In this document: one piece after another, positions 14,568-62,033 of the stretch
Position numbering within the stretch: the stretch's first letter is position 1
Layout: the number at the start of each line of letters is the position of its first letter
Assembly (NCBI GenBank): GCA_000438155.1
Contig: FR902981.1
Location: 22,734-86,733 of the forward strand
DNA length: 64,000 nt
From: Firmicutes bacterium CAG:95
GTDB taxonomy: Bacteria; Bacillota; Clostridia; Lachnospirales; Lachnospiraceae
Direction of reading: 5' to 3'
Translations under genes and position numbers: made by a program
The notes under the pieces: model-generated
Told to the model about the DNA's origin: nothing
The model's input: only the letters and a program-made list of their open reading frames with translations
The model's database searches: none

Positions 14568-14580
14568 TTATGTGTTACGA

Positions 14581-14612: not shown

Positions 14613-14735
14613 GACAATACAGCATAATTTTTTTTCTTTATAGCCTGAAGTATAACAAGGCAGGATGTTTAAGAAAGTATAATTAATACATGTATGTAAC
14701 TTGTAAAAATAAGAAGAAATGAAGGAGAAAGATTT

Positions 14736-15380: not shown

Positions 15381-15421
15381 TAGGAAAATTGACAAAGTAA
15401 AAGTAAAATGATACAATCTCC

Positions 15422-16159: not shown

Positions 16160-16194
16160 AAGGCTATTTTGATTTAGTAAAGGCAACGGTTAGA

Positions 16195-16245
16195 AACCTC
16201 TTTTTTGTTATGCTATTAGTAGAATGACAGAAAAGAGGTTTTTTT
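16195..16245 (+). promoter_or_regulatory. Hairpin plus U-tract between the regulator and the next gene. The right arm overlaps the RBS of the 16246 ORF, so it is a terminator or a translational attenuator.
   Basis: aacctcttttttg ... cagaaaagaggtt then ttttttt and ATG. The aagagg Shine-Dalgarno lies inside the 3' arm. Confidence 0.4.
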
Positions 16246-16974
16246 ATGAACTATACGACAGTAAACATACAAGATGAGCAGCAAACCCGGCATGAATTTT
16301 TATATGGATTGCAAACAATGGCCGTACTATTCAGAAACATAAGACATAAGGGATTTATGTCTGATAGCAGAGAAGGCAAGGTGGTTCTTAGATTTAGTCA
16401 TGAATGCAGTTCAGCCAAAGATTTTCTTTCTTATCTGTTAGCGGTTCATGAAACCGGGCAGGTTATGCTACAGCATGGCGATGTAATTGGCATTAAGATT
16501 AATGGTTCTATTATCTGCTACAGGTATACTGAGCAAGGACACACAAATAAAGATTTGCTGATTTGGAATTATTTTACGGAGCATAAAGAGTTTGAAAAGC
16601 GAGAAAAAGAGAGATATGTTACTAATCTCCATAAGAATAATCAGGTGCTTGATGTGTTGTCTGGTAAGGTCGTGAACATTGATAGTATTCAGTTTGCAGA
16701 TACACGCATCTGTGCCATTGATCAGGAATGTTATTATCCACATGGAGATAGGAGCAGCTTAATTATCACTGATTATTTTGTATATGAATTGAAAGATATG
16801 GGTATAGAAAACATAAATCCTTACCAAAGACCGTTTTGCGATATTAAGTCTGCTTTTATGTTTTTCCAGCATAATAAAAAGAAAGATAGGTATAGTCAGC
16901 GGCTTTTATTATTGAATAGAAAAGAATTGTATTTAGTACGGGACTACAGGCACTTGTTGACAATAGCATTATAG
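16246..16974 (+). CDS. Hypothetical protein (element cargo)
   Basis: 242-aa ORF with an RBS. No recognisable motif. Confidence 0.4.
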   Translation: MNYTTVNIQDEQQTRHEFLYGLQTMAVLFRNIRHKGFMSDSREGKVVLRFSHECSSAKDFLSYLLAVHETGQVMLQHGDVIGIKINGSIICYRYTEQGHTNKDLLIWNYFTEHKEFEKREKERYVTNLHKNNQVLDVLSGKVVNIDSIQFADTRICAIDQECYYPHGDRSSLIITDYFVYELKDMGIENINPYQRPFCDIKSAFMFFQHNKKKDRYSQRLLLLNRKELYLVRDYRHLLTIAL

Positions 16975-16986
16975 GGAGGTTAAGAT

Positions 16987-18855: not shown

Positions 18856-18856
18856 G

Positions 18857-19042
18857 ATGGATCAAGAGAAAGTCAGAATAATAAAGGAGAAAGAAGATGT
18901 ATTTTACCAGGTAGAAGGAGATATTACCCAATATTATGATTTAACTAATCTCAAAAGGAATCATCCTGAATTGAAGGTATATATTGAACAACATCAATTT
19001 GATTTACAAAGGCAGTTTTTTAGAAAAAAGGAACTGGAATGA
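18857..19042 (+). CDS. Small acidic hypothetical protein
   Basis: An internal ATG with RBS agaggaag. The upstream part of the listed ORF overlaps the previous gene. Confidence 0.3.
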   Translation: MDQEKVRIIKEKEDVFYQVEGDITQYYDLTNLKRNHPELKVYIEQHQFDLQRQFFRKKELE

Positions 19043-33317: not shown

Positions 33318-34292
33318 ATGTGTACAGCAGCAACTTATAAAACAAAAGACTTTTATATGGGAAGAACTCTGGATTATGAATTTTCCTATGGAGAACAGAT
33401 CACGATTACGCCAAGGAAATATCCGTTTGCATTCCGGCATGACGGAATGCCTGATACACACTATGCGATCATTGGAATGGCACATGTGGCAGAAGGGTAT
33501 CCGCTTTATTATGATGCGGTGAATGAAAAGGGACTCGGTATGGCCGGACTTAACTTCGTAGGAAATGCGGTCTATGCAGAGGTTCAGGATGGAAAGAATA
33601 ATATAGCACAGTTTGAATTTATTCCGTGGATTTTAAGCCGGTGTGCAGATCTGAAGGAAGCAAAAGAAACACTTGCTGACATGAATCTTGTGGGAACTCC
33701 GTTCAGTGAGCAGTTCCCTACAGCACAGCTTCACTGGATTATAGCAGATGCGACGGGAGCCGTTGTGGTTGAATCTGTGAGAGACGGTCTGAAGGTATAT
33801 GATAATCCGGTTGGAGTGCTTACGAATAATCCACCTTTTGAAATGCAGATTTTTAATCTGAATAATTACATGCATCTTTCGGAAAAACAACCGGAGAATC
33901 ATTTTGCAAAGGAGGTTCCGCTGCAGGCCTACAGCAGAGGTATGGGAGCATTGGGAATGCCGGGGGATCTGTCATCCATGTCCCGGTTTGTACGTGTGGC
34001 GTATACAAGAATGCATGCAGTATCTGGAAAGGGAGAGGAGGACAGTGTCGGACAGTTCTTTCATATTCTGGGATCGGTAGAACAACAGAGGGGGTGCTGT
34101 GAGGTGACGGACGGAAAATATGAAATCACGATCTATACCTCCTGCATGAATGCTTCCAGGGGAATTTATTATTACACCACTTACCAGAATCATCAGATTA
34201 CGGCAGTGGACATGCACAGGGAAGATCTGGACGCAGAAGAATTGATCTGTTATCCGATGAAAGATGAAGAAACGTTTGTATATCAGAATTAA
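33318..34292 (+). CDS. Choloylglycine hydrolase family (Ntn-hydrolase), bile-salt hydrolase or penicillin V acylase-like
   Basis: Begins MCTAATYKTKDFYMGRTLDYE: the nucleophile Cys2 directly follows Met, with conserved Arg and Asp. 324 aa. Confidence 0.8.
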   Translation: MCTAATYKTKDFYMGRTLDYEFSYGEQITITPRKYPFAFRHDGMPDTHYAIIGMAHVAEGYPLYYDAVNEKGLGMAGLNFVGNAVYAEVQDGKNNIAQFEFIPWILSRCADLKEAKETLADMNLVGTPFSEQFPTAQLHWIIADATGAVVVESVRDGLKVYDNPVGVLTNNPPFEMQIFNLNNYMHLSEKQPENHFAKEVPLQAYSRGMGALGMPGDLSSMSRFVRVAYTRMHAVSGKGEEDSVGQFFHILGSVEQQRGCCEVTDGKYEITIYTSCMNASRGIYYYTTYQNHQITAVDMHREDLDAEELICYPMKDEETFVYQN

Positions 34293-35159: not shown

Positions 35160-35882
35160 ATGGATCTGATTGATATTCATTGCCATATTTTGCCTGGGGC
35201 TGATGATGGATCCAAGTCTATGGAGGAAAGTCTTGCAATGTTACGGATTGCACAGCAAAATGCTATCCGTACTATCATTGTGACACCACATAATAAACCT
35301 GGACGACACAATATTCACATCCCCAGTATGAATGTCTATATTAAACAACTACAGGAGCAGATGGGCAGAGCCGGATTGTCAATTGAACTAATCGGAGGAA
35401 ATGAGCTCTATTATCGTATGGAACTTGCACAGGAGCTGCATGGCGGCGTGGCAAGGACGATGGCGGATTCCAGATATGTACTTTTGGAATTTGGACCAAT
35501 GGATGATTACGATTATCTGCGTAATGGTGTCTATGACCTTTTGTCTGAAGGTTATTTCCCGATTATAGCACATGTGGAGCGATATCAGTGCCTGGCAGAT
35601 CATGTTGAACGTATCAAAGATCTGACAGGAATGGGCGCGTATATTCAGGTGAATGCCGGAAGTGTAATGGGTAATGTGGGGTTTGGAATGAAGAGCTTTA
35701 CACGAAAGCTGTTAAAGCAGGAGCTGGTACATTTTGTGGCAACAGATGCACATGACACGAAGAAACGGGCACCGGAATTAAAGAAATGTGCGGATTATAT
35801 TGTTCACAAATATGGGAATCAATATGCTGAGGATATTTTTGTGAATAATCCGGAACATGTTATACGAAATGAGATTCTCTGA
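35160..35882 (+). CDS. PHP-family Mn-dependent protein-tyrosine phosphatase (CpsB/YwqE type)
   Basis: MDLIDIHCHILPGADDGSKSMEESL...VTPH is the CpsB/YwqE signature. Confidence 0.8.
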   Translation: MDLIDIHCHILPGADDGSKSMEESLAMLRIAQQNAIRTIIVTPHNKPGRHNIHIPSMNVYIKQLQEQMGRAGLSIELIGGNELYYRMELAQELHGGVARTMADSRYVLLEFGPMDDYDYLRNGVYDLLSEGYFPIIAHVERYQCLADHVERIKDLTGMGAYIQVNAGSVMGNVGFGMKSFTRKLLKQELVHFVATDAHDTKKRAPELKKCADYIVHKYGNQYAEDIFVNNPEHVIRNEIL

Positions 35883-35929
35883 TGAATCCTGTCAGATGAT
35901 TAATGTGAGAAATTACCAAGGAGAACTTC

Positions 35930-36664
35930 ATGGAAAATCAAAATGAACGTGATGAAATAGAAATTGATCTTGTGGAGTTGTTTTATGTCCTGTGGGGACA
36001 TGTGTGGCTGATCTTAAGTATCGGTCTTTTTTGTGCGCTCAGCTGTTTTGCTCTAAGCAAGTTCGTAATTGCTCCGACGTATAAGTCTACAACCAAAATA
36101 TATATTTTAAATAAGAGCGACAGTTCTTCTGTTACCTACAGTGACGTGCAGATGGGGACACAGCTTACGAAGGATTATACGGAGCTGATCAACAGCCGTT
36201 ATGTATTGGAGGCTGTGATTCAGGAGCTTGGTTTAAATATGGAATACAAAGATCTGCTTAAGAAGATCGATGTAACAACGCCGAGTGATACGCGAATCGT
36301 TTCGATTACCGTAGAGGATCACGATCCGGTGCAGGCAATGAATATAGCGAATTCTGTAAGAGAAAATGCAAGCACCCATATTCAGAATGTTATGGACATT
36401 GACGCAGTTAATGTAGCAGAGACGGCCAATATGCCAACCGAAAAGGCATCCCCGGGCTGCTCAAAATGGGCACTTATCGGAGGACTGCTTGGATGTCTTG
36501 GAATCAGTGCAATAATTCTGATTCGTTATCTCATGGATGATACGATCAAGTCGTCGGATGATATTGAGAAGTATCTGGGCTTAAGCACACTGGCACTGAT
36601 TCCCATGAAGGAAGATGAGGTCAATTCCAAAAAGAAAAAGAAGAAGCATAAACAGAGTAAGTAA
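35930..36664 (+). CDS. Wzz/CpsC/YwqC-type chain-length determinant, the transmembrane modulator of a BY-kinase
   Basis: EIDLVELFYVLWGHVWLILSIGLFCAL N-terminal TM. Second TM near the C-terminus (WALIGGLLGCLGISAIILI), then a K-rich tail. Confidence 0.75.
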   Translation: MENQNERDEIEIDLVELFYVLWGHVWLILSIGLFCALSCFALSKFVIAPTYKSTTKIYILNKSDSSSVTYSDVQMGTQLTKDYTELINSRYVLEAVIQELGLNMEYKDLLKKIDVTTPSDTRIVSITVEDHDPVQAMNIANSVRENASTHIQNVMDIDAVNVAETANMPTEKASPGCSKWALIGGLLGCLGISAIILIRYLMDDTIKSSDDIEKYLGLSTLALIPMKEDEVNSKKKKKKHKQSK

Positions 36665-36739
36665 GGTGTTAAGGAATAACGGGATGATCCCGGATGGGAT
36701 CACGAAGGAAACATAGAGAAGCACGGGAAGATAAGGAGA

Positions 36740-37660
36740 ATGACCATGGATGAGTTAACCATGCAGCATGTATCTTTACGATTTGATAAATCTGAGGATT
36801 ACCGGATTAAAGAAGCATTCAAAACATTGCGCACCAACATTGAATTCAGCGGTGCAGACTTAAAGGTAATCGCCGTAACCAGCTGTACTCCGAATGAAGG
36901 AAAAAGCTCGGTTGCCATGGAACTTGCCAAAGCTTTTGCAGAGGCAGGAAAACGGACACTGCTTATCGATGCCGATATGCGTAAGTCTGTATTAGTAGGG
37001 AGATACAAAACAGGTGCAGTGCGCCTGGGTTTGACTCACATTCTGGTGGGACGGGAGAAACTGAGTGATGTGATCTGTAAAACAAACTTCCCCAAGTTGT
37101 ACATGATTTTTGCAGGCCCCGTTCCACCTAACCCCAGTGAGCTTCTTGGCGGAGAAAATTTTGAACGCCTGATTAATAAAGCAAAGCAGCTGTTTGATTA
37201 TGTGATTGTGGATACTCCACCGCTTGGGAGTGTAATTGATGCAGCAGTTGCTGCCAAGAAGTGTGATGGAACCATTCTTGTTATTGAGAACAATGCGATC
37301 AGTTATAAATTTGCACAAAATGTAAAAGCACAGCTTGACAAGACAGAAAGCCGTATCCTGGGTGTCGTTCTTAACAAGGTGGATATGAGTACGAAGAGCT
37401 ATGGTCATTATGGTAAATACTATGGCAAATATTATGGAAAATATTACGGACAATACGGAAATGAAGGCGGACATGCGAAGACAACAGATCTGAGCAGGCA
37501 GGGAGCGGAAGAAGCCGGAGCAGAAGCAGGAATGCGTGCTTCAAGAAAATTAACCGAGAAGCGTCCGATGGATTCGACAGTAGAAGAAAGTGCAGAATCG
37601 GATCTGAATCTGGATGAGATGCTGGATAGAGGTTCTGACTTAGAAGAGATAAATTTGTAG
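36740..37660 (+). CDS. Bacterial tyrosine protein kinase (CpsD/YwqD BY-kinase) with an extended C-terminal tyrosine cluster
   Basis: Walker A (TSCTPNEGKSSVAMELA), Walker A'/B, and the Y-cluster KSYGHYGKYYGKYYGKYYGQYG, followed by an acidic tail. Confidence 0.8.
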   Translation: MTMDELTMQHVSLRFDKSEDYRIKEAFKTLRTNIEFSGADLKVIAVTSCTPNEGKSSVAMELAKAFAEAGKRTLLIDADMRKSVLVGRYKTGAVRLGLTHILVGREKLSDVICKTNFPKLYMIFAGPVPPNPSELLGGENFERLINKAKQLFDYVIVDTPPLGSVIDAAVAAKKCDGTILVIENNAISYKFAQNVKAQLDKTESRILGVVLNKVDMSTKSYGHYGKYYGKYYGKYYGQYGNEGGHAKTTDLSRQGAEEAGAEAGMRASRKLTEKRPMDSTVEESAESDLNLDEMLDRGSDLEEINL

Positions 37661-37745
37661 TCTGAACTGATTTGAAAAGATGCGCGAACAGTATATGCTG
37701 TCGGAAAAATTACAGCCGGAATAAATGTGACAGAGGAATAAAAGT

Positions 37746-38639
37746 ATGAAAGACAGTGGAAAATGGGCAGTTGTTTTTACCGTTTTAAATATCATATTGA
37801 TTACCGTTTGTGTGGTGCTGCTGCTTAATAAGGACAGGAAACCGCCGGTAATTTCTTTTTCCGGAAATGACCTGATTTATTACAGTGGCATTGACAATGA
37901 GAAGCTTCTGCAGGGAGTGGGCGCTGTAGATGCCAAGGACGGAGATGTCACAGACCGGATCGTAGTAGAAAAGATTGTTCAGAATAAGAATGAAAACCGA
38001 GCCATTGTTTATTATGCGGTAACGGATCTTGACGGAAATGCGGCGAAAGCATCCAGAGTGTTTGAAGCAGTAAACGAAGCTACCGGAGATGCTATGAAGG
38101 ATATCGGAATGGCAGGATTTGACGGAGACATGGATGGATCGCTTCCGGGTGAGCCGGAGACTTTGGAACCTGCAGATGCACAGGAAGAAGAACTACAGGC
38201 CACAGCAAATGCAGAAGATACGTCGGAAGAGGATACAGAAGCTGAAAGTTCTCCTTCCGTATCACCGACACCGGATATAGAGGAACAACGCCGTAAAGAG
38301 CAGGAAGAGGCGGACCGGAAGGCACAGGAAGAGGAAGAGCAAAGACAACAGGAAGAAGCGAGGAGACGGCAGGAGGAGGAAGCTGCTGCCAAGGCCGGAA
38401 ATCCGAAAATTATCTTAAAGAGTACTACCGTAAATGCGACCGCCGGGCAGCTTCCGGCATGGATTGATGCGGTTGGGAGCTTTCAGGATGATAAGGATGG
38501 ATATGAGACGTTATTTAAGAATCTGAAGGCGTCCAAATATGATGTCAATGCCAGGGGAGATCATGCCGTAACGCTGACGACGACAGACTCTGATGGGAAT
38601 GTGTCGGATCCGGTGAGTGTGACGGTGCATGTGAAGTGA
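37746..38639 (+). CDS. Membrane-anchored protein with two Ig-like (DUF5011-type) domains separated by an acidic E/Q/R linker
   Basis: N-terminal TM. The blocks DGDVTDRIVVEKI...YYAVTDLDGNAAKASR and ...YDVNARGDHAVTLTTTDSDGNVSDPVSVTVHV resemble bacterial Ig-like repeats. Confidence 0.45.
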   Translation: MKDSGKWAVVFTVLNIILITVCVVLLLNKDRKPPVISFSGNDLIYYSGIDNEKLLQGVGAVDAKDGDVTDRIVVEKIVQNKNENRAIVYYAVTDLDGNAAKASRVFEAVNEATGDAMKDIGMAGFDGDMDGSLPGEPETLEPADAQEEELQATANAEDTSEEDTEAESSPSVSPTPDIEEQRRKEQEEADRKAQEEEEQRQQEEARRRQEEEAAAKAGNPKIILKSTTVNATAGQLPAWIDAVGSFQDDKDGYETLFKNLKASKYDVNARGDHAVTLTTTDSDGNVSDPVSVTVHVK

Positions 38640-39001
38640 TTGATTGGACGGATATTGAGTGCCGGACGGACGCTCAACCGACGGAATATCAACGCAGACA
38701 CGCGGCGTTTCCTACTCGGCTCGTGCGTCGATTAACCGGCAGTCGCGCAAACTCGTCCTCCGGACTCAGACAGTGCGTTTGGTGCCGGTAACTGGCACAA
38801 GCCTCCTGACGGAAGCCTTGCGAAAGGTCTGCTTGTGATATTTCGTCGGTAGAGCTGAGTGTGGAAGAATGGACTTAATGGAAGAAAAAATGCCAGTTGA
38901 AGAATAATAGTTAGTGGATAGCAATTAATGAATAACAGAATGGATCCTTGGATGATGAGTAAGAACATAAGAGTTCATCCGGGATAAAAGGGTAAAAAGT
39001 A

Positions 39002-40162
39002 GTGAATAATTTGCTGACAAATAAGAAAAACAGAAGAGACCGTGTGGCGAATCTGGAGAAGTCACAGATTCTGGATCCGGAAAAGGTGAAGCGTGATAAG
39101 AAGCGTAAACGCAAGGTGGTTGCGTTGACTGTACTTGCTGCGATTACGGGACTGCTTGCAGCTGCATTTGCAGCGTTCCTGATTGTGGGAGCGATTGGTA
39201 AGGCAAACCTGCGCAGCAATGTGATTGCGGCGCCAAAGCTTGAAAATGCGCCGGTGGTGATAGAACTGCAACCGACAGAGGAAGAAGCTGCAGGCTGGAA
39301 AGAGGGCTGGGTGAAGTATAACGGTCAGATTTATGCATATAACGAGGATATTCTGACATTCCTTATCATGGGAATTGATAAGACGAAGGATGTGAAGGAA
39401 GTAGCGGAAGGAACAAACGGCGGACAGGCCGATGCCCTGTTCCTGGTGGTATTAAATCCGCATGATAATTCCTTAAGTGTCATTGGCATTAACCGGAATA
39501 CAATGACGGATATTTCTGTTTATGATGATAACGGTGCCTATGTTAATACGATTAAAGCGCAGATTACCGTGCAGCACGGCTTTGGGAATGGTGTGGAAGA
39601 AAGCTGTGAGTATCAGGTGAATGCTGTACAGCATCTGTTCTATGAAATGCCGGTTCATGGGTATGCAGCCATTAATATGAGTGCGATCGGACCACTTACG
39701 GATATGGTAGGTGGTGTGGATGTAGTGGCACTGGAGGATATTAAGAGTGGAAACAGCACCGTAATTAAGGAGGGTGAGGAGGTTCATCTGGAGGGTGATC
39801 TTGCTTTTGCCTATATTCATAATCGTGATACGAAGGAGTTCGGTTCTGCGGATCATCGTTTGGAGCGTCAGAAGCAGTTTATTACGACGTATTTGCAGAA
39901 GGTAAAGCAAAAGACAAAGGAAGACATTGGATTTCCGATTTCCGTATATCAGTCGATCGCTCCGCAGACTGTTACCAGTCTGACGGTGGATGAGATGACC
40001 TATCTGGTATCCATAGCAAAGGATTACAGCTTTGATGAGAATTATCTCTATACCCTGAAGGGAGAAACAAAGCAGGGGGATGTATTCGAGGAGTTTTATG
40101 TGGATGAGACCGATCTGTTTGAATTGATTCTAAAGGTATTCTATGAGCCGGTGGAGCAGTAA
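39002..40162 (+). CDS. LytR-CpsA-Psr (LCP) family cell-envelope glycopolymer transferase
   Basis: N-terminal TM, then the LCP core (DALFLVVLNPHDNSLSVIGINRNTMTD...QHGFGNG). Confidence 0.8.
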   Translation: MNNLLTNKKNRRDRVANLEKSQILDPEKVKRDKKRKRKVVALTVLAAITGLLAAAFAAFLIVGAIGKANLRSNVIAAPKLENAPVVIELQPTEEEAAGWKEGWVKYNGQIYAYNEDILTFLIMGIDKTKDVKEVAEGTNGGQADALFLVVLNPHDNSLSVIGINRNTMTDISVYDDNGAYVNTIKAQITVQHGFGNGVEESCEYQVNAVQHLFYEMPVHGYAAINMSAIGPLTDMVGGVDVVALEDIKSGNSTVIKEGEEVHLEGDLAFAYIHNRDTKEFGSADHRLERQKQFITTYLQKVKQKTKEDIGFPISVYQSIAPQTVTSLTVDEMTYLVSIAKDYSFDENYLYTLKGETKQGDVFEEFYVDETDLFELILKVFYEPVEQ

Positions 40163-44213: not shown

Positions 44214-44657
44214 TTATTGTTCGCTTGTTTCCAGCCTTTCCACTTGTACCGATATGTCATCGGATAGTTTTGCTGAATATTCTTGATTCAAAAAATCAAA
44301 GCAGGCTTTACAATAAAATTCATTATTGTATTGATATATCTCAAAATTTATAAGTCTGTTTTCGTCTGTTTTTTGCTGTTCCACCGATTTTTGCTTGTCA
44401 GCCTGAAATATAACTATCCTTTTATACCTCATGGCTTCTTCTGGGATTCCGACATTTTCGCTTTCTACGTCTAAAAAGAAATCACATATCTGATTAACTA
44501 AATCATCTATTGTTTCATTAGTAGAATCGTATTCTTTTTCTGTGTTATCTGAATAATCATAAATCACAATAATCTGATCTTTGCTGCTATCTCCACAACC
44601 ACTAATTAACAAACAAATAAATGCAACTAACAAAATCATTATATTTTTGATATGCAT
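44214..44657 (-). CDS. Lipoprotein, function unknown
   Basis: Signal and lipobox (MHIKNIMILLVAFICLLISGCGDSS). Confidence 0.5.
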   Translation of the reverse strand: MHIKNIMILLVAFICLLISGCGDSSKDQIIVIYDYSDNTEKEYDSTNETIDDLVNQICDFFLDVESENVGIPEEAMRYKRIVIFQADKQKSVEQQKTDENRLINFEIYQYNNEFYCKACFDFLNQEYSAKLSDDISVQVERLETSEQ

Positions 44658-48957: not shown

Positions 48958-50652
48958 CTAACGTAACCTTATTATATCCCCCTCCCCCCATTCCATAAGA
49001 AGTGCAGCACTTCCTGAAGCAAAGGGCGTGGCAAAGGAGGTTCCTGACACGGCAACCGGAACATTTCCCGGACTTAACGTTTTAATGTTTACTCCTGGTG
49101 CTACAAAATCCGGTTTTATGTTAATCGATGAAGGAGGCATATTCCTGCCTCTTCCAGAAAAATCCGCATAGGCTTCAGTATAGGTATCATAGGCCCCAAC
49201 GGTAATCACTCTGGCTGCTGTAGAAGGTATCGTCAGTGTCTTTTCCGGTGTTGACTGAAAAAAGCGGGTTTCCACGCTAAGCACAGAGCTGCTTGGCAGA
49301 TAGAAGTCATACCCTCCACCTTCCACCTGTACCGGCTCTATCATAAAGCTCCAGACCCCTTGGTTAACATAACTATTCGCCGGTAAAAAATCAAAATATA
49401 TTTCCTGTCTGACGGAATACGGGGTGGGCTCACCCTGATAAATCAAAAGCTCTGTATCTTCCATCCGATAACGCACGGCTGTATCTAATGCAGAATTAAG
49501 CTGCAGGATCTGCCCTCCGGGAGATTGTAAGACAATCCGGAAGGTATCAGTATACTCCTTCCATAGCTGCACACTGAATGACGCCTGATACTCACCAACT
49601 GCCAATTCGGTCCGTGGTATATTTCCCTGTGCATCCCTGTTAAATGTTCCGGCTGCATGCCCTCCGGCTGCTCCCTCATTGCCACTCCCTACACAGATCA
49701 CACATCTCCCGAGCTCTGCAATATTATCAAGGAACCTCTCTACAAGTGATGTTCCGTCATGAACCCCATAGGTATTTCCAAAGCTCAGATTAATCACAAG
49801 CGGCATGGAGAGCTGCAGTGCCGTCCGGGCAGCAAAGGTAAGTCCCCTCATCAGTTCTGTAGTCTTGGGAAAAGAATTCGGTCTGCTGTTCCCGAGCTTT
49901 ACAATCAGCAGTTCTGCTTCCGGTGCCACTCCCTGAAACCTGCCATCCATAAAATTCCCTGATCCTGCCGCAATCGTTGCAACTGCGGTTCCATGTCCGG
50001 AAGTGTCCACACTTGGCACGAGCTGTAACGGTGCAGTACTCTGCAATGCCGCATCAATCCGTTCTTTCGAAAACATGACTCCCTGGGTAAAGCCTTCAGG
50101 CGGTAAGCTTTGCATAAATTCTTCATTATGATCCGTAAGAAGTACATCCACCTCCTTCGGATTTAATGTCTGATCCCATAAATAACGGATTCTCGTTTTT
50201 CCACCTTTTTCCTGAAACTCCGGACTCTGATAATCAATTCCGGAATCCAGTATGGCCATTAATACTCCTTTCCCAGACAGGAACGGATCTCTCACCGTAA
50301 CCTCCGGGATACAGGAGGTCTGCTTCCCGTCCAGCACCGAAAAATACAACCGCTTTGGTTTTTCGATATATTCTACCTCCGGCAGCTCCGCAAACGACTC
50401 AATCAGAGATTCCGGTAGTGTTACGATCGCATAGCCTGCAATCAATTCCTCTACCTGTATCAGATCCCCAGACAGCGGCTGCAGGCTTCCGTTGTATTTC
50501 ACAATCAGCTCCCAGCGTTTCTCCTCCTCCAGATATCCCACATCCAGCTGTCTGGACTTTTCCCGTTCTTCCCCGGTTGCCTCTAATGACAGATTTAATA
50601 CACCTTCCAGCTTCTGATTCTGCATCCTTTTCCCCCACAATTCTATCTGCAT
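48958..50652 (-). CDS. Subtilisin-like S8 serine protease without a signal peptide. It is possibly a CspB-like germination protease, or a pro-peptide processing protease.
   Basis: Catalytic triad contexts AILDSGID (Asp), SGHGTAVATIAAG (His) and GTSFATPFASGSAALL (Ser). 564 aa with an N-terminal prodomain-like region and no secretion signal. Confidence 0.7.
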   Translation of the reverse strand: MQIELWGKRMQNQKLEGVLNLSLEATGEEREKSRQLDVGYLEEEKRWELIVKYNGSLQPLSGDLIQVEELIAGYAIVTLPESLIESFAELPEVEYIEKPKRLYFSVLDGKQTSCIPEVTVRDPFLSGKGVLMAILDSGIDYQSPEFQEKGGKTRIRYLWDQTLNPKEVDVLLTDHNEEFMQSLPPEGFTQGVMFSKERIDAALQSTAPLQLVPSVDTSGHGTAVATIAAGSGNFMDGRFQGVAPEAELLIVKLGNSRPNSFPKTTELMRGLTFAARTALQLSMPLVINLSFGNTYGVHDGTSLVERFLDNIAELGRCVICVGSGNEGAAGGHAAGTFNRDAQGNIPRTELAVGEYQASFSVQLWKEYTDTFRIVLQSPGGQILQLNSALDTAVRYRMEDTELLIYQGEPTPYSVRQEIYFDFLPANSYVNQGVWSFMIEPVQVEGGGYDFYLPSSSVLSVETRFFQSTPEKTLTIPSTAARVITVGAYDTYTEAYADFSGRGRNMPPSSINIKPDFVAPGVNIKTLSPGNVPVAVSGTSFATPFASGSAALLMEWGEGDIIRLR

Positions 50653-50832: not shown

Positions 50833-51810
50833 TTGATTATGATTAACAATTCCGAAGATATACAAAAACAGACTGATCAGCGCATATGCTTTTCCGGGGA
50901 AACTGAATATCCGGTTCACGTTACCTATGTGGATCTGAACCGTTCCTATATGAACCGGATTGGCTGGAACTGGCATCCGGAAATTGAGGTATTTCTGGTG
51001 GAAGAAGGCTCTGCCATTATTTATTACGATGACAGCCAGATATCCCTGGAGGTCGGACAGGGCGTGATTATCAATCAGAATGTCATGCATTCCATTCTTT
51101 CTGTTTCTCCGTCCCAGAGCTGCAAACTGTTTTCCTATGCCTTCCACCCTTCCTTTCTGTTCGGTTATGGAGATACTCTGTTTACCAGTAAATATGTAAC
51201 CCCTCTGCTTCATCATGCAGGTCTCCGGGCACTTCACCTTCATTCTTCCGATGAAGGACTTGCCCATATTCTGTCCCTTTCCTACCGGATCGTCCAGTTA
51301 AATAAGGATCAGGAATGGGGCTATGAACTGGCAACCAAAGCCTGTATCTGTGAGCTCTGGTGTGAACTTCTCAGAAAGTTTCCTTTCACCCCGGAAAAGA
51401 CCCGGCACACAGCAGTTCTCACCTCCGATGAACTCCGTACCAGGGAAATTATGAAATACATTGAAATCCATTATGCTGAACGCATCACACTGGATGATCT
51501 TGCAGCCCAGGTACACATCAGCAAAAGCGAGTGTTGCCGCTGTGTTAAGCGCTGCCTTCACATGACACCGGTCGAATATCTGATGAAATACCGCATCTAT
51601 ATGGCGGCCTATCTGATTCAGAAAAATGATCCTGCCGTATCTTCTATTTCAGATCTTGCCTTTCAGGTTGGCTTTAACAATGCCAGCTATTTCAATAAGG
51701 TGTTCCGGCAGTACCTGCAGTGTACTCCCGGAGAATTCCGTAAGAAGATTCGCCAGAACCCGGATTTTCAACCTTTTCATACTGACTTTTATTCGGAAAA
51801 TCTCTCCTGA
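50833..51810 (+). CDS. AraC-family transcriptional regulator (cupin-type sensor domain plus HTH)
   Basis: The C-terminal two-HTH AraC domain (LDDLAAQVHISKSECCRCVKRCLHMTPVEYL...GFNNASYFNKVFRQY). Confidence 0.8.
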   Translation: MIMINNSEDIQKQTDQRICFSGETEYPVHVTYVDLNRSYMNRIGWNWHPEIEVFLVEEGSAIIYYDDSQISLEVGQGVIINQNVMHSILSVSPSQSCKLFSYAFHPSFLFGYGDTLFTSKYVTPLLHHAGLRALHLHSSDEGLAHILSLSYRIVQLNKDQEWGYELATKACICELWCELLRKFPFTPEKTRHTAVLTSDELRTREIMKYIEIHYAERITLDDLAAQVHISKSECCRCVKRCLHMTPVEYLMKYRIYMAAYLIQKNDPAVSSISDLAFQVGFNNASYFNKVFRQYLQCTPGEFRKKIRQNPDFQPFHTDFYSENLS

Positions 51811-53211
51811 TCATCGATTGCAGAGTTCCTCGGTCTGCTCATCTGCCTTCTGATAGCAGGCTGCAATCTCCTGCTGCAGCGAAGCCAGCTTCTGCATTTT
51901 CTTTCCCAAATGCTCTACCTCAGAAGCTACCTGTTTTAGCTGAAACGTCACCAGATTTCTGCCCTGCATGTAAAAGGGCATTTCCTTTTCATAGCTTTGG
52001 ATCTGCTCTCCCAGCCTTATCGTTTCCTCTGCTGCCGCAGATAATCCCTCACTCTTTGAAGCAAGTGCTTCATAATCCACCTCGATACAGATTCTGTCCG
52101 GTATTTCCTTCGTATAAGAATCTTCCCACAATGTCTTTCCAAGGAAGTTGAGTCCCCCTGCGGTTTTGGTTGTTGCATCCGTAATTGCCGGAATACCGGC
52201 AAATAAAAAGTGTTTTACATCAGCCAGGGTCGTCTTTTCCCCATTCAGTCCACGGGAGGCTCCACCTGCCGCTTCAATTCCCTGCATCACAACATTGGCT
52301 GCTCCTGCCCGTTCCTCCTCCGGCAGCTTCATAATCTCTTTGGAAAGCTCCGACGCATATTTTCCAAGGGATCCCTGCTTTAAAACTTCTTCATTTCTTC
52401 TTCCTGTAAATTGTGTCACCCATTTTCCTGTTGTCCGGTCCAGCACCAAGGTGGCAAACATATAAGTAATATCATGATATCCGGCAAAGTTTCCCTTCTG
52501 TACCGGAGTCCTGATATAGGTCACATGATTCTCCGGAATGATCTGGTTTCCCAACGGACTTACATAATCATTCTCTCCGTGAATTCCATATAACTTCTGT
52601 ATCCGGCCCTGATATTCTGCTTCACTGTATTTACGCTGGAATCTTGCATCCGCTTTCTCAGACATTCCCTGCCCATCCACGGAATAACAGCGGTCAATCA
52701 GATCTCCAAATTCTGTTTCCATAGTTACAAACTGCGCTTTATTTCCACCTTTGGAATGCCCGGTTACGATTACTCTCTGATTCTCTGTAAGCTGCGCCTT
52801 TCTTGCCACGGTATCAAAATAATCAACGGCGCGCTGTTGCTGTGTCGTGATTTCCTTCGTCATGCCCAGTCCATTATCCGGCCATTCACCATCTCCTGTC
52901 CCCCGGTAGGCAACAAAGATGCGGTCATTCTTCTCATCCAGAAAGGTACACGCCTTCGTTCCATGGTCAAACCCAAGCGTACTGCTCGCATAACATACCT
53001 TAAGGTTACCGATCTGCTCATCCTGCACTGCCTGCTCCAGAATCCGGTATTCATTCTGGTACGTACCTCCCGTTCCGTATTCCGGGACACCGGAAAGCTT
53101 CCCGATCACCTCTTTTAATTCCACCGGTTCCTTAGAAGCTTCCTGATATCCCAGATACATATAGGTATCCAGAATCATGCTGATCTCTTCTTCTGTATAC
53201 TTTCTACCCAT
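51811..53211 (-). CDS. Putative T7SS-secreted lipase/esterase toxin. N-terminal alpha/beta-hydrolase (Mbeg1-like/DUF2974-type, GHSKGG nucleophile elbow), C-terminal helical domain. This is the reversed-LXG, TslA-like arrangement.
   Basis: GxSxG-type motif VTGHSKGGNKAQFV in the N-terminal 300 aa. The last approximately 120 aa are predicted helical/coiled-coil (..TFQLKQVASEVEHLGKKMQKLASLQQEIAACYQKADEQTEEL). The start is 9 nt downstream of a WXG100 gene in the EssC operon. Confidence 0.6.
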   Translation of the reverse strand: MGRKYTEEEISMILDTYMYLGYQEASKEPVELKEVIGKLSGVPEYGTGGTYQNEYRILEQAVQDEQIGNLKVCYASSTLGFDHGTKACTFLDEKNDRIFVAYRGTGDGEWPDNGLGMTKEITTQQQRAVDYFDTVARKAQLTENQRVIVTGHSKGGNKAQFVTMETEFGDLIDRCYSVDGQGMSEKADARFQRKYSEAEYQGRIQKLYGIHGENDYVSPLGNQIIPENHVTYIRTPVQKGNFAGYHDITYMFATLVLDRTTGKWVTQFTGRRNEEVLKQGSLGKYASELSKEIMKLPEEERAGAANVVMQGIEAAGGASRGLNGEKTTLADVKHFLFAGIPAITDATTKTAGGLNFLGKTLWEDSYTKEIPDRICIEVDYEALASKSEGLSAAAEETIRLGEQIQSYEKEMPFYMQGRNLVTFQLKQVASEVEHLGKKMQKLASLQQEIAACYQKADEQTEELCNR

Positions 53212-53220: not shown

Positions 53221-53535
53221 CTAGTTGATGATATTGGATTCCAGACCGCTTCCCTGTTCCATATTGCCGCTTTCCGCTCTCTGGTAATGACCGGCCATCT
53301 CCGTCAGATCCTGTGAATGCTCCGCAATCATCCGGTAAAGCTTATCCATATCCGTCTGCAGGGTTTTAAAACGGGTCAGAAACGTTCCGGACGCTTCTCC
53401 CTGCCAGATTCCCTGCAGTGAATCCACCAGGGTCATCATTTCTCCTGTCAGATTCTTTACCTGTGTTCCTGTTGTTGCAAATGTACCGGATGCCTGAATC
53501 AGTTTTTCCGGTGTAACCTTTAAAATACCTTCCAT
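53221..53535 (-). CDS. esxA: WXG100 (EsxA-like) protein
   Basis: About 100-aa helical hairpin protein with the central WXG motif (LQGIWQGEASGTF). Confidence 0.75.
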   Translation of the reverse strand: MEGILKVTPEKLIQASGTFATTGTQVKNLTGEMMTLVDSLQGIWQGEASGTFLTRFKTLQTDMDKLYRMIAEHSQDLTEMAGHYQRAESGNMEQGSGLESNIIN

Positions 53536-53558: not shown

Positions 53559-53858
53559 TTAGTAACTGCGTGATGCTGCAATTTCTGCATTTCTTGCTTC
53601 CACCTCTTCATATCTGGCGGCAATTTCAAGCATGACCTCAACATATCGCTCAATCAGCTTCTCAAAGAGAAGCATCTGCTCCTTATCCCTTGCAAATGCG
53701 TGGTGAAAGGCTTCCTTGGCCTGCCCATCCCACATACTGCACAATTCCTGTTCCTGGGAATCCAGTTCATTGCACTTTGCCCGGAACTGACCGTTTAAGC
53801 CCCGTAAGTTTTCCGCCTTATTTCTTAATTCTCTTGAAGTAACCTCAAAAAATGCCAT
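53559..53858 (-). CDS. WXG100-like small helical protein
   Basis: 99 aa, W-x-G at CSMWDGQAKEAF. Confidence 0.65.
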   Translation of the reverse strand: MAFFEVTSRELRNKAENLRGLNGQFRAKCNELDSQEQELCSMWDGQAKEAFHHAFARDKEQMLLFEKLIERYVEVMLEIAARYEEVEARNAEIAASRSY

Positions 53859-53869: not shown

Positions 53870-54184
53870 CTAATACGTTCTTAGATTTCCAATTGCTTCA
53901 TTGCATTTTTCGGCACAATACATAGCTTTTGCGTAACCCTCTACCATACGTGCCACCTTTTTTAATTCATCCGCTTCGCCGGATAATCTGGTACATAATC
54001 TCACCTCCCTTTCCATGAAAAGGTCTGCACTTTCTCCCATCCAGCACAGCTTCGTCTCCAACAGGAGCTGACAAATCTTTTCATCTGCCAATAGCCGGAT
54101 CTGGTCTGCGGTTGTCTGCATCTGATCCGCTAATTCCTGCAGCCTGTTAAACTGAACCTCAATCCATTCCTGCAGCATCCACAT
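53870..54184 (-). CDS. WXG100-like small helical protein. Start moved to the internal MWMLQEW, because the upstream extension is a K/R-rich out-of-frame overlap.
   Basis: W-x-G at CWMGESADLF. About 105 aa. Confidence 0.5.
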   Translation of the reverse strand: MWMLQEWIEVQFNRLQELADQMQTTADQIRLLADEKICQLLLETKLCWMGESADLFMEREVRLCTRLSGEADELKKVARMVEGYAKAMYCAEKCNEAIGNLRTY

Positions 54185-54455
54185 TTCCCCTTTCTGCCTG
54201 TTCGTAATACTCTGCAATCTGAAAAAGGCGCTCTGCAAACCACTTCGTTCTTTCAAACGGCCACCCCGCCGCTTCCAGTTCCTCTTTTGCAATTATACAG
54301 AGCCGTTCCATCCCTTTTGTTTCAAATTTTATGGCAAGTGCCATAAACCGTTCCACCGTTTCCTGATACTGCGCAAGAGCCTGCTCACATTCTTCGCTGA
54401 GCAATGCAGCTTCCTCCCGCAGATATTCCGAACGGACCTTCACCATTCCATCCAT
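54159..54455 (-). CDS. Small helical protein (about 98 aa) of the WXG100/partner class. Start taken at the internal MDGMVKV.
   Basis: Helical, E/A-rich. Lies between two WXG100 genes. Confidence 0.45.
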   Translation of the reverse strand: MDGMVKVRSEYLREEAALLSEECEQALAQYQETVERFMALAIKFETKGMERLCIIAKEELEAAGWPFERTKWFAERLFQIAEYYEQAERGNVDAAGMD

Positions 54456-54459: not shown

Positions 54460-54756
54460 CTACACTTCCTGTGCACGCATAATATTGTTTTGTTCCACAG
54501 CTGCAAGTAATATTCCCATCTGCTCTGCCCTGTCCAGAATTTCCTGCATGGCTGTCACATGCTCTGTATCCATCCTAAGCCATTCCATAAAGGTATTGAC
54601 CCAGGTGGTTCCTGCTTCTCCTTCCCAATGCTCCTGAAGCATTGCTGATCTTTCTTCCATCCATTTAAGAGAATCCTTTACCTTCATCATCTGCTGCCGC
54701 ATTTCCATAATTTCTTTTTTCAACATACTGCTGTTCATCATTACATGTCCGTTCAC
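54460..54756 (-). CDS. WXG100-like protein
   Basis: 98 aa, W-x-G at LQEHWEGEAGTTW. Confidence 0.65.
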   Translation of the reverse strand: MNGHVMMNSSMLKKEIMEMRQQMMKVKDSLKWMEERSAMLQEHWEGEAGTTWVNTFMEWLRMDTEHVTAMQEILDRAEQMGILLAAVEQNNIMRAQEV

Positions 54757-54829: not shown

Positions 54830-55075
54830 TCAGATCAAAACAAATGGCTCTCCCGGAAGAATACCCTGTGAGATCAGACTCTGTTCCGGATCCATCACCC
54901 GCTCGAGATCAAGTGCATACAGATAATAATTTTTTTCTTCAAAAGAAACCTCCTCCTTACGTTCAATCAGTTCTAAGCTCTGCCTGACAATTTCCCCTGC
55001 CGGCATCTCTCCGTTCCATTCAAAATCATAGCTTTCATTCAGCATCGGCACATAAAGATCTGCCATTATCATCAT
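54830..55075 (-). CDS. esaB: YukD/EsaB-like ubiquitin-fold protein of a type VIIb secretion system
   Basis: About 80-aa acidic protein (MADLYVPMLNESYDFEWNGEMPAGEIVRQSLELIE...) that starts 4 nt after the essC stop. Size and position match the YukD/EsaB beta-grasp protein. Alternative start at 55066. Confidence 0.55.
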   Translation of the reverse strand: MMIMADLYVPMLNESYDFEWNGEMPAGEIVRQSLELIERKEEVSFEEKNYYLYALDLERVMDPEQSLISQGILPGEPFVLI

Positions 55076-59489: not shown

Positions 59490-59886
59490 ATAGCACCTCT
59501 TTTATTCTTTCGTGAAAATATTAGATGTCATAAAAACTAATAAAAGATGAAAGGATATGTTAATCGATCAACAATGAATTCATAAGTTATTATGTAAGAT
59601 AACAGATTTGGCATTTCACGTCAAGATGTTTTTGGTAAATTTAAACAATTATTTTACCAGATTAGTTTTATAATTTGGTTATTATCACGATACCTTATCC
59701 CTCTCACTAAACGCATGCTGCGCCTCCGGCTTGCATTCCTTAAGTGTTCCGGACTGGTTCGCACTCAAAATGATCCACTGAATCATTTTCTCATATGCAT
59801 GGCAACAAAAAAACAGACACACCCATTTAAGATGTGCCTGCACTTTCTCAGATTATAAAGCCAATTAAACGTCCTTCCGGTAAAAC

Positions 59887-60615
59887 CTAAAAATAGGAAT
59901 TAAAAATATTACCGGAAGCATAGGTATTACTGTAAGTTCCCTTCGTTGTATAGGTATTTGCCTTTGCTGCTTCCTGTGTTGCTGCAAAATCGATAAAGGA
60001 AGACTGGGAAGATACTCTGGATGCATAAGAATAACTTCCGCTAAACAAAGTCTTCACGGTGTTTGCATCTGCCTTTGCAAAAGCATCCTTGTCAAGTGTC
60101 AGTGTATCGTCCTTACCAATGGTAATACCTGCCTGACCCAACAGCTTCTGATTGGACTCTGTCATGTTCTTTAAGGTATCTACACGCTTCGTGATACTGT
60201 CGGAAGCGGACTTGGCAGACCCTTCAATCAGCTTGTTATAATTGGTTACAAAACTGTCTACCGCTTTATAAATCTCATCCTGACTCTTACTGAATACAGA
60301 ATCCTTACCTGTATTCGTTAACTGATCTGCAGAACTCTTCAAACTCTCTGATGCCGTCTGGATCTGCTTCAAGGTCTCTGCAGAATCCTTGGATGTGGAG
60401 AGTGTTTTCTTCTTTTCATCTACAATAGAAGCAGCTTCCTTGCTGATCTTGTTACCTTTGCCATAATAGGCCTTCATCAGCTTGCCATAGCTTCCATTCT
60501 TAATGCTCATGTAATCGGAAAGAAAATTTAAATTAGAATTTCCTGACATACTCTGAAACAAAAAAGAATAATTCTGCTTCATACCGGTATATCCCATGTT
60601 CAATCGTACTCCCAT
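59887..60615 (-). CDS. S/T/K-rich hydrophilic protein of unknown function upstream of essC, with its own terminator-like region. Start at the internal ATG with RBS.
   Basis: No TM or signal peptide. Low-complexity. Separated from essC by about 400 nt. Confidence 0.35.
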   Translation of the reverse strand: MGVRLNMGYTGMKQNYSFLFQSMSGNSNLNFLSDYMSIKNGSYGKLMKAYYGKGNKISKEAASIVDEKKKTLSTSKDSAETLKQIQTASESLKSSADQLTNTGKDSVFSKSQDEIYKAVDSFVTNYNKLIEGSAKSASDSITKRVDTLKNMTESNQKLLGQAGITIGKDDTLTLDKDAFAKADANTVKTLFSGSYSYASRVSSQSSFIDFAATQEAAKANTYTTKGTYSNTYASGNIFNSYF

Positions 60616-60743
60616 ATGACTTCCCTGCCTTTCCATACGCTAATTATATATTAGCAAAATAATCGGTAAAATACAATCCGATTTACGCAATTCATGTAAA
60701 AAAATACGCAATATCTGATAGGCATACCTTTCCTCCGTATGTT

Positions 60744-62033
60744 ATGCTTAACGAAACGGAAGGGAGAACTATTATGCTGAAAATACATCCTCATCGCAAG
60801 CACCTTAACATTCTTACATTTATACTGACTATCCTGCTCATAGTGAGCGGATGCCGTAAGGAGGAAACAGTCCCTATGCAAATACACGAAACTACGAGTC
60901 CAATATCTGAAGAGTCCGTTTCTACAGAAGCATCCTCACCCCAGCCATCAGCTGACAGTCCGGTTGTTTCCGATCTTCCCTCCCTGAAAGAACTCTATGC
61001 AGACTATTTCCAAATGGGTGTATGCATTAATCCGGTCACAGTTTCTGACAACCAGTATAAGGAGCTGATCTGTCATGAATTTAACAGTGTTACCAACGAA
61101 AATAACCTTAAACCGGAAAATATCATCAGCAAATCGGCTACTCTTGCCGATCTGGAAGGAAACCGTGAACATATACAACTTGATTTCACCCGTGTAATAC
61201 CGGAGCTTGATTTTGCTGTCCGGAATCACCTTAAGGTACGCGGACATACTCTCATCTGGCACAGCCAGACCCCGGACTGGATCTTTTATAAAGACTATGA
61301 TCCATCGGGAGAGCCTGCAGACCGTGAACTGATGCTGAAACGTATGGAAAATTACATCCATGATGTATTTTCCTTTATATCCACAAACTATCCCGATCTT
61401 TTCTATGCATTCGATATTGCTAATGAATGCATTGATGATAACGGTGGTATGAGAGACTCCTTATGGCGTAAGACCATCGGGGACGACTACCTCAATTATG
61501 CATTTTCCTATGCGCGCACCTATGCCCCGGAAGAAATTCTGCTTTTTTATAATGACTATAATACTTATCAGCCAGCCAAACAGGCTGATATCATAAATCT
61601 GCTTTCCCCGGTTGCAGAAGCTGGAAATCTGGACGGAATTGGAATGCAGAGCCACCTCGATACCGACGTATCTCCTGCCAGGTTCACCTTTGCGGCACAG
61701 AAATATGCCGACGAACTCCATGTTGTGATTCACATAACTGAACTGGATATTGTCCAGCCGGATGCAGGAAATCCTGAGAAAATACAGGGACTTTATTATA
61801 AAAGATTCTTTGATGCACTGGTTGCGGCCAAAAAGAACGGAACTCCGATTGAAAGCGTCAGCGTATGGGGACTTACCGATGGCCTCTCCTGGAAATCCGA
61901 TGACCATCCGTTGCTTTTCCACAGTGACCTGACTCCAAAGGATTGCTTTTATGAAATCACATCCGGTGAAGCTTATACAGGAGCGGCTTCACCGGAAATA
62001 ATGGCTTCAAGCTCCCGGAATGCCTGTTCATAG
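60744..62033 (+). CDS. Glycoside hydrolase family 10 endo-1,4-beta-xylanase, lipoprotein
   Basis: Lipoprotein signal (LTILLIVSGC). GH10 catalytic landmarks include the nucleophile motif HITELDI and the acid/base region (NE). 429 aa. Confidence 0.8.
   Translation: MLNETEGRTIMLKIHPHRKHLNILTFILTILLIVSGCRKEETVPMQIHETTSPISEESVSTEASSPQPSADSPVVSDLPSLKELYADYFQMGVCINPVTVSDNQYKELICHEFNSVTNENNLKPENIISKSATLADLEGNREHIQLDFTRVIPELDFAVRNHLKVRGHTLIWHSQTPDWIFYKDYDPSGEPADRELMLKRMENYIHDVFSFISTNYPDLFYAFDIANECIDDNGGMRDSLWRKTIGDDYLNYAFSYARTYAPEEILLFYNDYNTYQPAKQADIINLLSPVAEAGNLDGIGMQSHLDTDVSPARFTFAAQKYADELHVVIHITELDIVQPDAGNPEKIQGLYYKRFFDALVAAKKNGTPIESVSVWGLTDGLSWKSDDHPLLFHSDLTPKDCFYEITSGEAYTGAASPEIMASSSRNACS

Follow-up and report, generated by a model that had tools for sequence, protein, structure and literature searches.

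Does the last gene of a type VII secretion system (T7SS) operon in a gut bacterium encode an exported lipase and, if so, is this lipase a weapon? The question is raised by a locus of Firmicutes bacterium CAG:95 (Lachnospiraceae) that we analysed within 64,000 nucleotides of contig FR902981.1 (positions 22,734 to 86,733). We call this whole stretch the window and number positions from its first nucleotide. On its minus strand, an open reading frame (ORF) for a 466-amino-acid (aa) protein, hereafter the lipase, ends an eight-gene operon with the order essC, yukD, five small genes named W1 to W5, and lipase (Table 1). An initial annotation of the sequence had proposed that the protein is a T7SS lipase toxin of reverse orientation, with the hydrolase domain first and the helical secretion domain last. 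Our analysis upheld a substrate architecture like that of TslA and the link to a T7SS; it did not establish the toxin part, the gene being non-polymorphic and the loci free of immunity arrays. We consider it probable that the T7SS exports this lipase of reverse domain order, with its WXG100-like tail and the WXG100-like partners from the operon forming the targeting signal. The closest points of comparison are two reverse lipases of Staphylococcus aureus, the T7SSb toxin TslA (Tsl1), described in 2023 (PMC10730906), and TslM (Tsl2), described in 2026 (PMC13560087).

The last gene of the operon encodes a class-3-lipase-fold hydrolase

The ORF at 51811-53211 opens with the hydrolase domain, as had been proposed, and carries the motif GHSKGG at residues 151-156 within an alpha/beta core. 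By searching Pfam, we found a match to Mbeg1-like PF11187 (formerly DUF2974) at residues 87-187 (49.5 bits, E 4.9e-13, cut-off 21.1 bits), spanning about the first half of the model only. DUF6792 gave a weaker match (26.6 bits, cut-off 25) and Lipase_3, the other family that the initial annotation had named, scored under its cut-off.

An AlphaFold2 (AF2) model built on 45 homologues (predicted local distance difference test 87, predicted template-modelling score 0.76) divides the protein into three regions, namely an alpha/beta core (residues ~70-270), a helical region (281-362) and a two-helix hairpin (380-465). Compared with the PDB by Foldseek, the model resembles fungal class-3 lipases and feruloyl esterases, feruloyl esterase A being among the top fold matches. 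The best matches were 6qpr, 6a0w, 5ch8 and 3o0d (E about 1e-4, probability 1.0); the last of these is Yarrowia Lip2, the template cited for both TslA and TslM. Foldseek also paired the lipase with 9cys, a lipase effector of a type VI secretion system (T6SS).

The residues of a candidate catalytic triad, on which the initial annotation had made its proposal depend, are all present. Ser153 (GHSKGG, codon 52753-52755), Asp215 (GENDYV, codon 52567-52569) and His246 (GYHDI, codon 52474-52476), each checked on the sequence, are invariant in the 45 homologues. They are spaced by 62 and 31 residues, compared with 60 and 27 for S164, D224 and H251 of TslA. No Sec or Tat signal peptide and no transmembrane segment were seen in the protein, which has no hydrophobic window along its sequence and starts with 30 residues that are helical and bear a net charge of -3. 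Together, these features predict a lipase or esterase, that is a class-3-lipase-fold hydrolase with a Ser-Asp-His candidate triad.

The tail of the lipase resembles the WXG100 proteins encoded beside it

The C-terminal tail had been described as a coiled coil of about 120 aa. It is indeed helical, but its size and type differ, since the helical part covers ~185 aa and the AF2 model confines the WXG100-like hairpin to the last ~90 aa only. By aligning profiles with hhalign, we found that residues 375-466 match the W5 family end to end (94.5%, E 7.5e-8, 88 columns), with weaker alignments to the W2 and W4 families. In a control, the middle region of the lipase gave about 0.3% and no alignment with the WXG families. 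Also, a hidden Markov model (HMM) of the tail matched W5, W4 and W3 among the ORFs of the window.

Two motifs stand out in the tail. The turn between its helices reads P412-F-Y-M-Q-G417 (family consensus PxYMKG), with P412 in 95% and Y414 in 90% of 121 sequences, followed by M-K-G. This is a hydrophobic-x-Gly (h-x-G) motif, comparable to WxG, LxG and the LFG of TslM. Near the end, Y453-Q-K-A-D457 is a motif of the YxxxD/E type; in the same 121 sequences Y453 is found in 100% and W456 in 82%, with D or E at 457. Apart from these two motifs the tail is poorly conserved.

A profile search of the PDB with the tail gave a weak match to chain 4lws (E 0.2). When searched against 1.8 billion representative sequences, the tail profile retrieved almost exclusively the lipase family and its fragments; we regarded the few large coiled-coil proteins among the matches as spurious. 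Two other proteins came up in that search. In P0181 (444 aa) a hairpin like that of the lipase tail lies at the N-terminus, which is the canonical substrate order, and is followed by a Gly/Ala-rich hydrophobic C-terminal region, so that P0181 is a candidate substrate of forward arrangement. P0185 (231 aa) consists of two fused WXG100 domains.

The lipase closes a compact T7SS operon

EssC scored 786.5 bits against TIGR03928 (cut-off 778.4). It has three Walker A motifs (residues 678, 1010 and 1281) and two transmembrane segments (transmembrane windows at 240-292), which are the only ones of the cassette; its N-terminal region is degenerate and FHA-like, with a weak match to the EmbR FHA domain. 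Homologues of the YukD-like protein in other genomes are called YukD.

The initial annotation had counted five partner genes before the lipase, and we could confirm five small helical WXG100-like ORFs. W4 and W5 lie above the Pfam cut-off and W1 just under it, while W2 and W3 were assigned by profile comparison with the other W families (hhalign probability 76-99%), W2 having no match in the HMM libraries scanned. The gene limits agree with the calls made on identical human-gut contigs, which give 81, 93, 98, 102, 99, 104 and 466 aa for yukD, W1 to W5 and the lipase, respectively.

W5 and the lipase lie only 9 nucleotides (nt) apart, with a GGAG ribosome-binding site in between. The lipase is the final gene of the operon and, judging from this spacing, is predicted to be translationally coupled to W5. 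A terminator-like hairpin and promoter-like sites just upstream of essC indicate that the transcription unit spans essC to the lipase. At its other end, the next gene is a convergent AraC regulator and no lipoprotein gene follows, as had been noted: the two stop codons abut without spacer (51808-51813) in the palindrome TGATCA, and no terminator-like hairpin was seen at this junction. The gap is likewise 0 nt in the identical human-gut contigs and reaches up to about 80 nt in close relatives.

Table 1. Features of the lipase operon and its limits in the window (maximal ORF ends in parentheses).
Feature	Coordinates	Strand	Evidence
Convergent AraC-family regulator	50833 or 50839..51810	+	Pfam HTH_18 and AraC_binding; syntenic in 44 related loci
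Lipase gene, 466 aa: Mbeg1-like/DUF2974 class-3-lipase-fold hydrolase with C-terminal WXG100-like hairpin	51811..53211	-	ORF, Pfam, AF2, Foldseek
Lipase, C-terminal WXG100-like helical hairpin, residues 375-466	51814..52089	-	AF2 helices 380-410 and 419-465; hhalign
Lipase, helical middle region, residues 278-365, well conserved, not WXG100-like	52117..52380	-	AF2 helices 281-362; conservation 0.58-0.75
Lipase, hydrolase domain, residues 1-275	52387..53211	-	Homologue alignment, codon check
W5, WXG100 protein, 104 aa, slowly evolving; candidate core EsxA/EsxB-type	53221..53535	-	Pfam WXG100 E 2.2e-15; TIGR03930
W4, WXG100 protein, 99 aa, slowly evolving; candidate W5 partner	53559..53858	-	Pfam WXG100 E 3e-9, above cut-off
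W3, WXG100-like, 102 aa, fast evolving (maximal ORF to 54292)	53870..54178	-	TIGR03930 E 0.0013 (weak); hhalign vs W5 94%
W2, WXG100-like, 98 aa, fast evolving, without WxG motif (maximal ORF to 54506)	54159..54455	-	hhalign vs W5 98.8%, vs W4 97.8%
W1, WXG100-like, 93 aa, fast evolving (maximal ORF to 54756)	54460..54741	-	Pfam WXG100 26.7 bits vs cut-off 27.3; hhalign vs W4 97%
YukD/EsaB-like ubiquitin-fold protein, 81 aa (maximal ORF to 55120)	54830..55075	-	Pfam YukD E 1.2e-4, below cut-off
EssC-type FtsK/SpoIIIE ATPase, 1469 aa	55080..59489	-	TIGR03928, Pfam FtsK_SpoIIIE
Promoter-like sites upstream of essC (consensus matches only)	59504..59624	-	Sequence scan
Strong terminator-like hairpin, 12-bp stem and T run	59813..59841	-	Between 249-aa gene and essC

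The linkage of lipase and T7SS is conserved across Lachnospiraceae

A first homologue search gave 405 full-length matches of about 445-500 aa. Relatives of the lipase occur in at least 562 species-level genomes, nearly all of them Lachnospiraceae, the closest being in metagenome-assembled genomes (MAGs) of a Lachnospiraceae member (96% identity) and of an Anaerobutyricum sp. (90%). An identical protein is present in many human gut metagenome assemblies.

The initial annotation had held that occurrence in genomes without a T7SS would speak against a T7SS substrate. Wherever a Lachnospiraceae-type locus had 7 kb or more of upstream DNA (65 of 65 loci), we found the same-strand order essC, yukD, three divergent small genes, W4, W5 and lipase; the linkage thus held throughout this set. 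At one outgroup locus, in the complete genome of Anaeromicropila herbilytica (L065:9227-11617), no essC lies within 10 kb; here the anchored protein described below is encoded together with a 551-aa homologue of the lipase that has a hydrophobic segment as well as a helical tail. Lipase relatives of Oscillospiraceae also lie in T7SS loci, with a different gene order, and there the lipase forms with an anchored-protein gene a module attached to a different T7SS layout. These loci (L080-L086; for example L083:8000-20000 of Merdimmobilis hominis) contain three WXG100-like genes, the anchored protein, the lipase, a regulator, EssC, small helical genes and an FHA-domain protein; their lipase has 552 aa, with a hydrophobic segment before the helical tail.

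By clustering all ORFs from about 80 loci, we found no further conserved T7SS-like neighbour. The conserved neighbours are syntenic housekeeping genes (ZIP transporter, AraC, CspB, flavin mononucleotide dehydrogenase and response regulator), with the ZIP transporter upstream and AraC and CspB downstream forming the conserved chromosomal surroundings of the cassette. A plasmid search gave no match. The cassette looks complete as it stands and vertically inherited.

Its members differ in evolutionary rate. In loci where the lipase has a median identity of 45%, W5 and W4 have 63% and 60%, respectively. Mean pairwise distances are 0.69-0.77 for W1 to W3 and 0.74 for the lipase tail, compared with 0.31-0.34 for W4 and W5 and 0.40 for the N-terminal domain of the lipase.

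An anchored, inhibitor-like protein accompanies many relatives of the lipase

The partners of TslA had been said in the initial annotation to be encoded just upstream of it, and an immunity gene had been looked for downstream of the lipase. Both points need correction. At the tslA locus, the helical partners are encoded downstream of the lipase gene and the immunity gene, tilA, is found upstream of it (PMC10730906), so that by analogy an immunity gene would be expected upstream of the lipase and not downstream.

In 33 of 77 Lachnospiraceae loci, a gene for a protein of ~235 aa stands between W5 and the lipase. Including the outgroups (Oscillospiraceae and Anaeromicropila), it occurs at 39 of 81 loci, each time as a single copy immediately upstream of the lipase, which is the position that tilA has beside tslA. 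Its product is membrane-anchored and extracytoplasmic, with tandem cystatin/latexin-like domains of inhibitor type, and many of the proteins have an uncleaved-looking N-terminal anchor instead of a lipobox. On a neighbour-joining tree of the lipase domain, the gene is present in the outgroups and patchy in Lachnospiraceae, a pattern that implies at least eight losses, one of them in the clade of the window. The ~235-aa protein therefore appears, from this distribution, to be ancestral to the lipase family.

In the window itself, the lipase has no lipoprotein gene next to it on either side. A 147-aa lipoprotein encoded at 44214-44657 was considered as an immunity protein of the ~235-aa type and is unrelated (hhalign 0.3%).

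Comparison with known T7SS lipases and T7SS variants

Reverse T7SS lipases, as well as DUF2974 genes near variant T7SS, have already been published, and the lipase of the window is another such protein with unusual traits. We set it beside TslA and TslM by their published descriptions, which place neither in a Pfam family; no solved structure of the two was listed. With TslA it shares an N-terminal class-3-lipase-like domain modelled on Yarrowia Lip2, a near-equal triad spacing, the lack of a signal peptide, a C-terminal targeting domain that is helical, resembles EsxA and has a turn of the h-x-G type, and small helix-turn-helix partner genes in the operon; in relatives of the locus, the gene for an anchored extracytoplasmic protein directly upstream of the lipase adds a likeness to tilA. 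However, TslA has two partner genes downstream whereas the lipase has five upstream, and the lipase tail is a single WXG100-like hairpin of ~90 aa. Also, the lipase is fixed in a core T7SS operon and not on a variable genomic island, and it is not polymorphic and has neither DUF576 lipoprotein arrays nor a gene at the immunity position.

TslM is likewise a reverse lipase with a C-terminal helical domain, an LFG turn motif and a partner of the WXG100 family. Its immunity protein is a signal-anchored membrane protein with an extracellular globular domain, and many of the ~235-aa proteins are similarly anchored; moreover, shorter (~400-aa) homologues without linker have been reported in other Bacillota. 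In contrast to the lipase, TslM needs one partner, has a long disordered linker and is encoded beside divergently transcribed DUF1433 immunity arrays. The locus of the window has no DUF1433 gene or array, and the middle region of its lipase is a conserved helical domain.

Other reverse lipases were found at T7SSe (Neobacillus) and T7SSg (Paenibacillus) loci in a survey of T7SS variants from 2024 (PMC11217815). They share with our lipase the C-terminal targeting domain, a variant T7SS cluster and extra WXG100-like genes nearby. The neighbourhood tables of the survey list DUF2974/Mbeg1-like proteins about 78 times near variant EssC genes, and none from Lachnospiraceae (PMC11217815). Unlike subtypes c to j, the cassette of the window lacks their defining kinase, phosphatase, FHA-protein, TsxI and beta-propeller components. 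The same gene content has been published for an operon of Ca. Epulopiscium viviparus, also a member of the Lachnospiraceae, with yukBA, yukD and five yukE and without yukC or yueBC, the five copies being left unexplained (PMC10756260). Both operons thus combine an EssC/YukBA ATPase, YukD and five WXG100 genes without YukC or YueB/C, but no lipase is tied to the Epulopiscium operon in that paper, while in the window the lipase adds a sixth WXG100-like domain after the five genes.

A model for export and its alternatives

We propose that the lipase would be made in the cytoplasm without a signal peptide, with the catalytic domain first and the helix-turn-helix hairpin last. Through its h-x-G turn and YxxxD motif, the hairpin would pair with at least one of the small WXG100-like proteins and so build up a helical bundle, for which the fast-evolving W1 to W3 may be the likeliest substrate-specific adaptors, while the slow-evolving W4 and W5 could form a core EsxA/EsxB-type pair. 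The EssC ATPase would then recognise and export this bundle, in the manner demonstrated for the S. aureus lipases TslA and TslM. Once exported, the lipase would cleave ester lipids, most probably membrane phospholipids. We infer export, partner pairing and substrate from the features of the protein and its operon. As for the target, DUF2974 is in the literature an accepted effector domain of antibacterial type IV secretion systems (T4SS) and T6SS, and together with the ancestral inhibitor-like neighbour this favours an effector directed at membrane lipids. The conservation pattern and the repeated loss of the anchored neighbour favour instead a non-toxin role or a non-self target. We give an antibacterial role somewhat less than even chances, and place at a similar level a role on host, dietary or own-envelope lipids.

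Several findings weigh against this model. EssA, EssB/YukC and EsaA/YueB were not found among the window ORFs scanned nor within 10 kb in about 70 loci; this search covers the window and the neighbourhoods, and unlinked genes elsewhere in the genome are possible. As these genes do not accompany the operon, the minimal gene set is not certain to form a working exporter. The Pfam models WXG100 (PF06013) and LXG (PF04740) gave no match on the 466-aa lipase at E <= 0.1. The similarity of the tail to WXG100 proteins is therefore visible at profile level only, where helical low-complexity sequence could inflate it; the LXG-like helices that the initial annotation expected at the C-terminus were recovered as a WXG100-like hairpin by hhalign and not as a Pfam match. 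A partial Mantel test controlled for EssC and N-domain distances gave r of 0.26, 0.24 and 0.15 between the tail and W1, W2 and W3, respectively, and about 0 for W4 and W5. Given that the slow N-domain of the lipase, used as control, correlates with the slow W4 and W5, the signal of W1 to W3 may reflect shared fast evolution and not specific co-evolution, and is a hint only. Also, no essC was found within 10 kb of the lipase homologue of Anaeromicropila (L065).

Other findings speak against a classical toxin. In close relatives the lipase is 90-96% identical, as conserved as the flanking genes and not polymorphic, and its catalytic triad was kept although the ~235-aa gene was lost at least eight times. 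We found no member of the ~235-aa family in the window by tblastn and HMM searches against all six-frame ORFs. At related loci there are no immunity arrays, the candidate inhibitor being present in one copy per locus. Conserved, vertically inherited and without immunity arrays, the lipase is unlike the known polymorphic T7SS toxins.

These findings, together with the failure to find plasmid copies and the conserved chromosomal neighbourhood in which the cassette is inherited, would suit a lipase that takes the same export route and is no interbacterial toxin. A minimal T7SS spread across Lachnospiraceae would then have this lipase as its conserved, dedicated cargo; the lipase would serve a physiological purpose, for example in remodelling own-envelope lipids, on host or dietary lipids, or as a feruloyl-type esterase, and the ~235-aa anchored protein would be an optional modulator, anchor or foldase and not an immunity protein. 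The presence of feruloyl esterase A among the top Foldseek matches fits this explanation, as does the identification of Mbeg1 of Gemella as an NF-kB-inducing effector gene, and the authors of the Epulopiscium study saw no competition genes at the equivalent operon (PMC10756260). A feruloyl-esterase function as the leading explanation, prompted by a GH10 xylanase gene nearby (60744-62033), was rejected, the xylanase not being conserved at other loci. Yet every characterised reverse T7SS lipase is an antibacterial phospholipase with membrane-anchored immunity, and it is as an antibacterial effector domain that DUF2974 serves T4SS and T6SS. Moreover, the anchored protein has inhibitor-type domains, a tilA-like position and apparently an ancestral place in the family. 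We take a purely physiological cargo seriously, but rather doubt it.

It is also conceivable that the hydrolase stays inside the cell as a T7SS accessory, its tail docking onto EssC or WXG100 dimers, for instance in substrate processing or regulation. T7SSa has a hydrolase core component, the mycosin protease, and at the lipase loci the co-occurrence with essC is strictly 1:1, the gene order is fixed and the machine is without the usual accessory membrane proteins. However, in fold and triad the protein is like secreted lipases, the tail bears export-type motifs, an extracytoplasmic anchored partner stands beside the lipase in half of the loci and in the outgroups, and the homologue of Anaeromicropila has this partner without a nearby essC; a cytoplasmic accessory is thus very improbable. 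Position alone is no proof of function either, since the non-T7SS neighbours AraC and CspB are equally syntenic, and the protein might be a common cytoplasmic esterase whose coiled-coil tail has nothing to do with secretion. Against such a chance association, the linkage to the T7SS persists in Oscillospiraceae despite their different gene order, the lipase appears translationally coupled to W5, and its tail shows profile-level homology to the WXG100 genes next to it. We give this last explanation hardly any credit, and retain T7SS export of a reverse lipase as the probable one.

Other features of the window

A gene for a Ser/Thr-rich protein of 249 aa (59887-60636, minus strand) lies just upstream of essC and is followed by its own terminator-like hairpin. 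At least 16 related loci keep it in this place, and in L058 and L062 a tandem fusion brings it to about 452 aa. We rejected it as a T7SS component: it has no transmembrane segment, only weak Pfam matches and no likeness to WXG100 proteins, and the hairpin separates it from essC.

Beyond the AraC gene, the germination-protease gene cspB (48958-50652) is about 45 C-terminal codons short (564 aa vs 599-603 aa in relatives), and synteny with the closest genomes ends at about 48985. Within the segment 44000-48985 are an ArsR-family gene, a DUF5688 fragment, a 301-aa ORF with a PemK/MazF toxin domain at its end, and other small ORFs. It looks like an insertion of a small mobile-like block into the 3' end of cspB; the short cspB is also called on other human-gut contigs.

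Positions 1-19000 (plus strand) form a segment like an integrative and conjugative element. It encodes a VirD4/TraG coupling protein (3366-5738), a coiled-coil protein of 1300 aa (10665-14567) and a protein in which the polyvalent-protein domains LPD11 and LPD24 occur (16987-18855), besides an NlpC/P60 hydrolase and DUF3801. Further on are a gene of the choloylglycine (bile-salt) hydrolase family (33318-34292) and a block for capsule or cell-wall polysaccharide (35160-40162) with CpsB, Wzz, a tyrosine-kinase-type ATPase and LytR-CpsA-Psr; both fit a gut commensal origin. Between 42000 and 44000, guanine-cytosine skew and gene orientation switch, genes being on the plus strand before about 43 kb and mostly on the minus strand after it. 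Apart from the element-like segment and the mobile-like block, the window otherwise contains housekeeping genes; no T7SS component was found in it outside the operon.

Implications

We tentatively raise the possibility, which we hold to be less than likely, that the lipase is no polymorphic weapon but the dedicated, conserved cargo of a previously unclassified minimal T7SS subtype present throughout Lachnospiraceae (EssC, YukD and five WXG100 proteins, no EssA, EssB or EsaA), with W1 to W3 as co-evolving adaptors and an ancestral anchored inhibitor-like protein that became dispensable in many lineages. If so, the operons with five yukE genes would be explained, and the target would be something other than the membrane of the producer, possibly lipids of the host or the diet, or a lipid class that the producer does not have.

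So far, experimental proof of T7SS substrates of reverse arrangement is limited to two lipase families of staphylococci, and the locus described here would extend this principle to abundant Lachnospiraceae of the human gut. A lipase in the core operon of a very small T7SS is a concrete candidate cargo and offers a rationale for the five WXG100 genes. Finally, the lineages with and without the candidate inhibitor gene provide a natural set with which to address whether such a lipase acts as a weapon or has another role in the gut.

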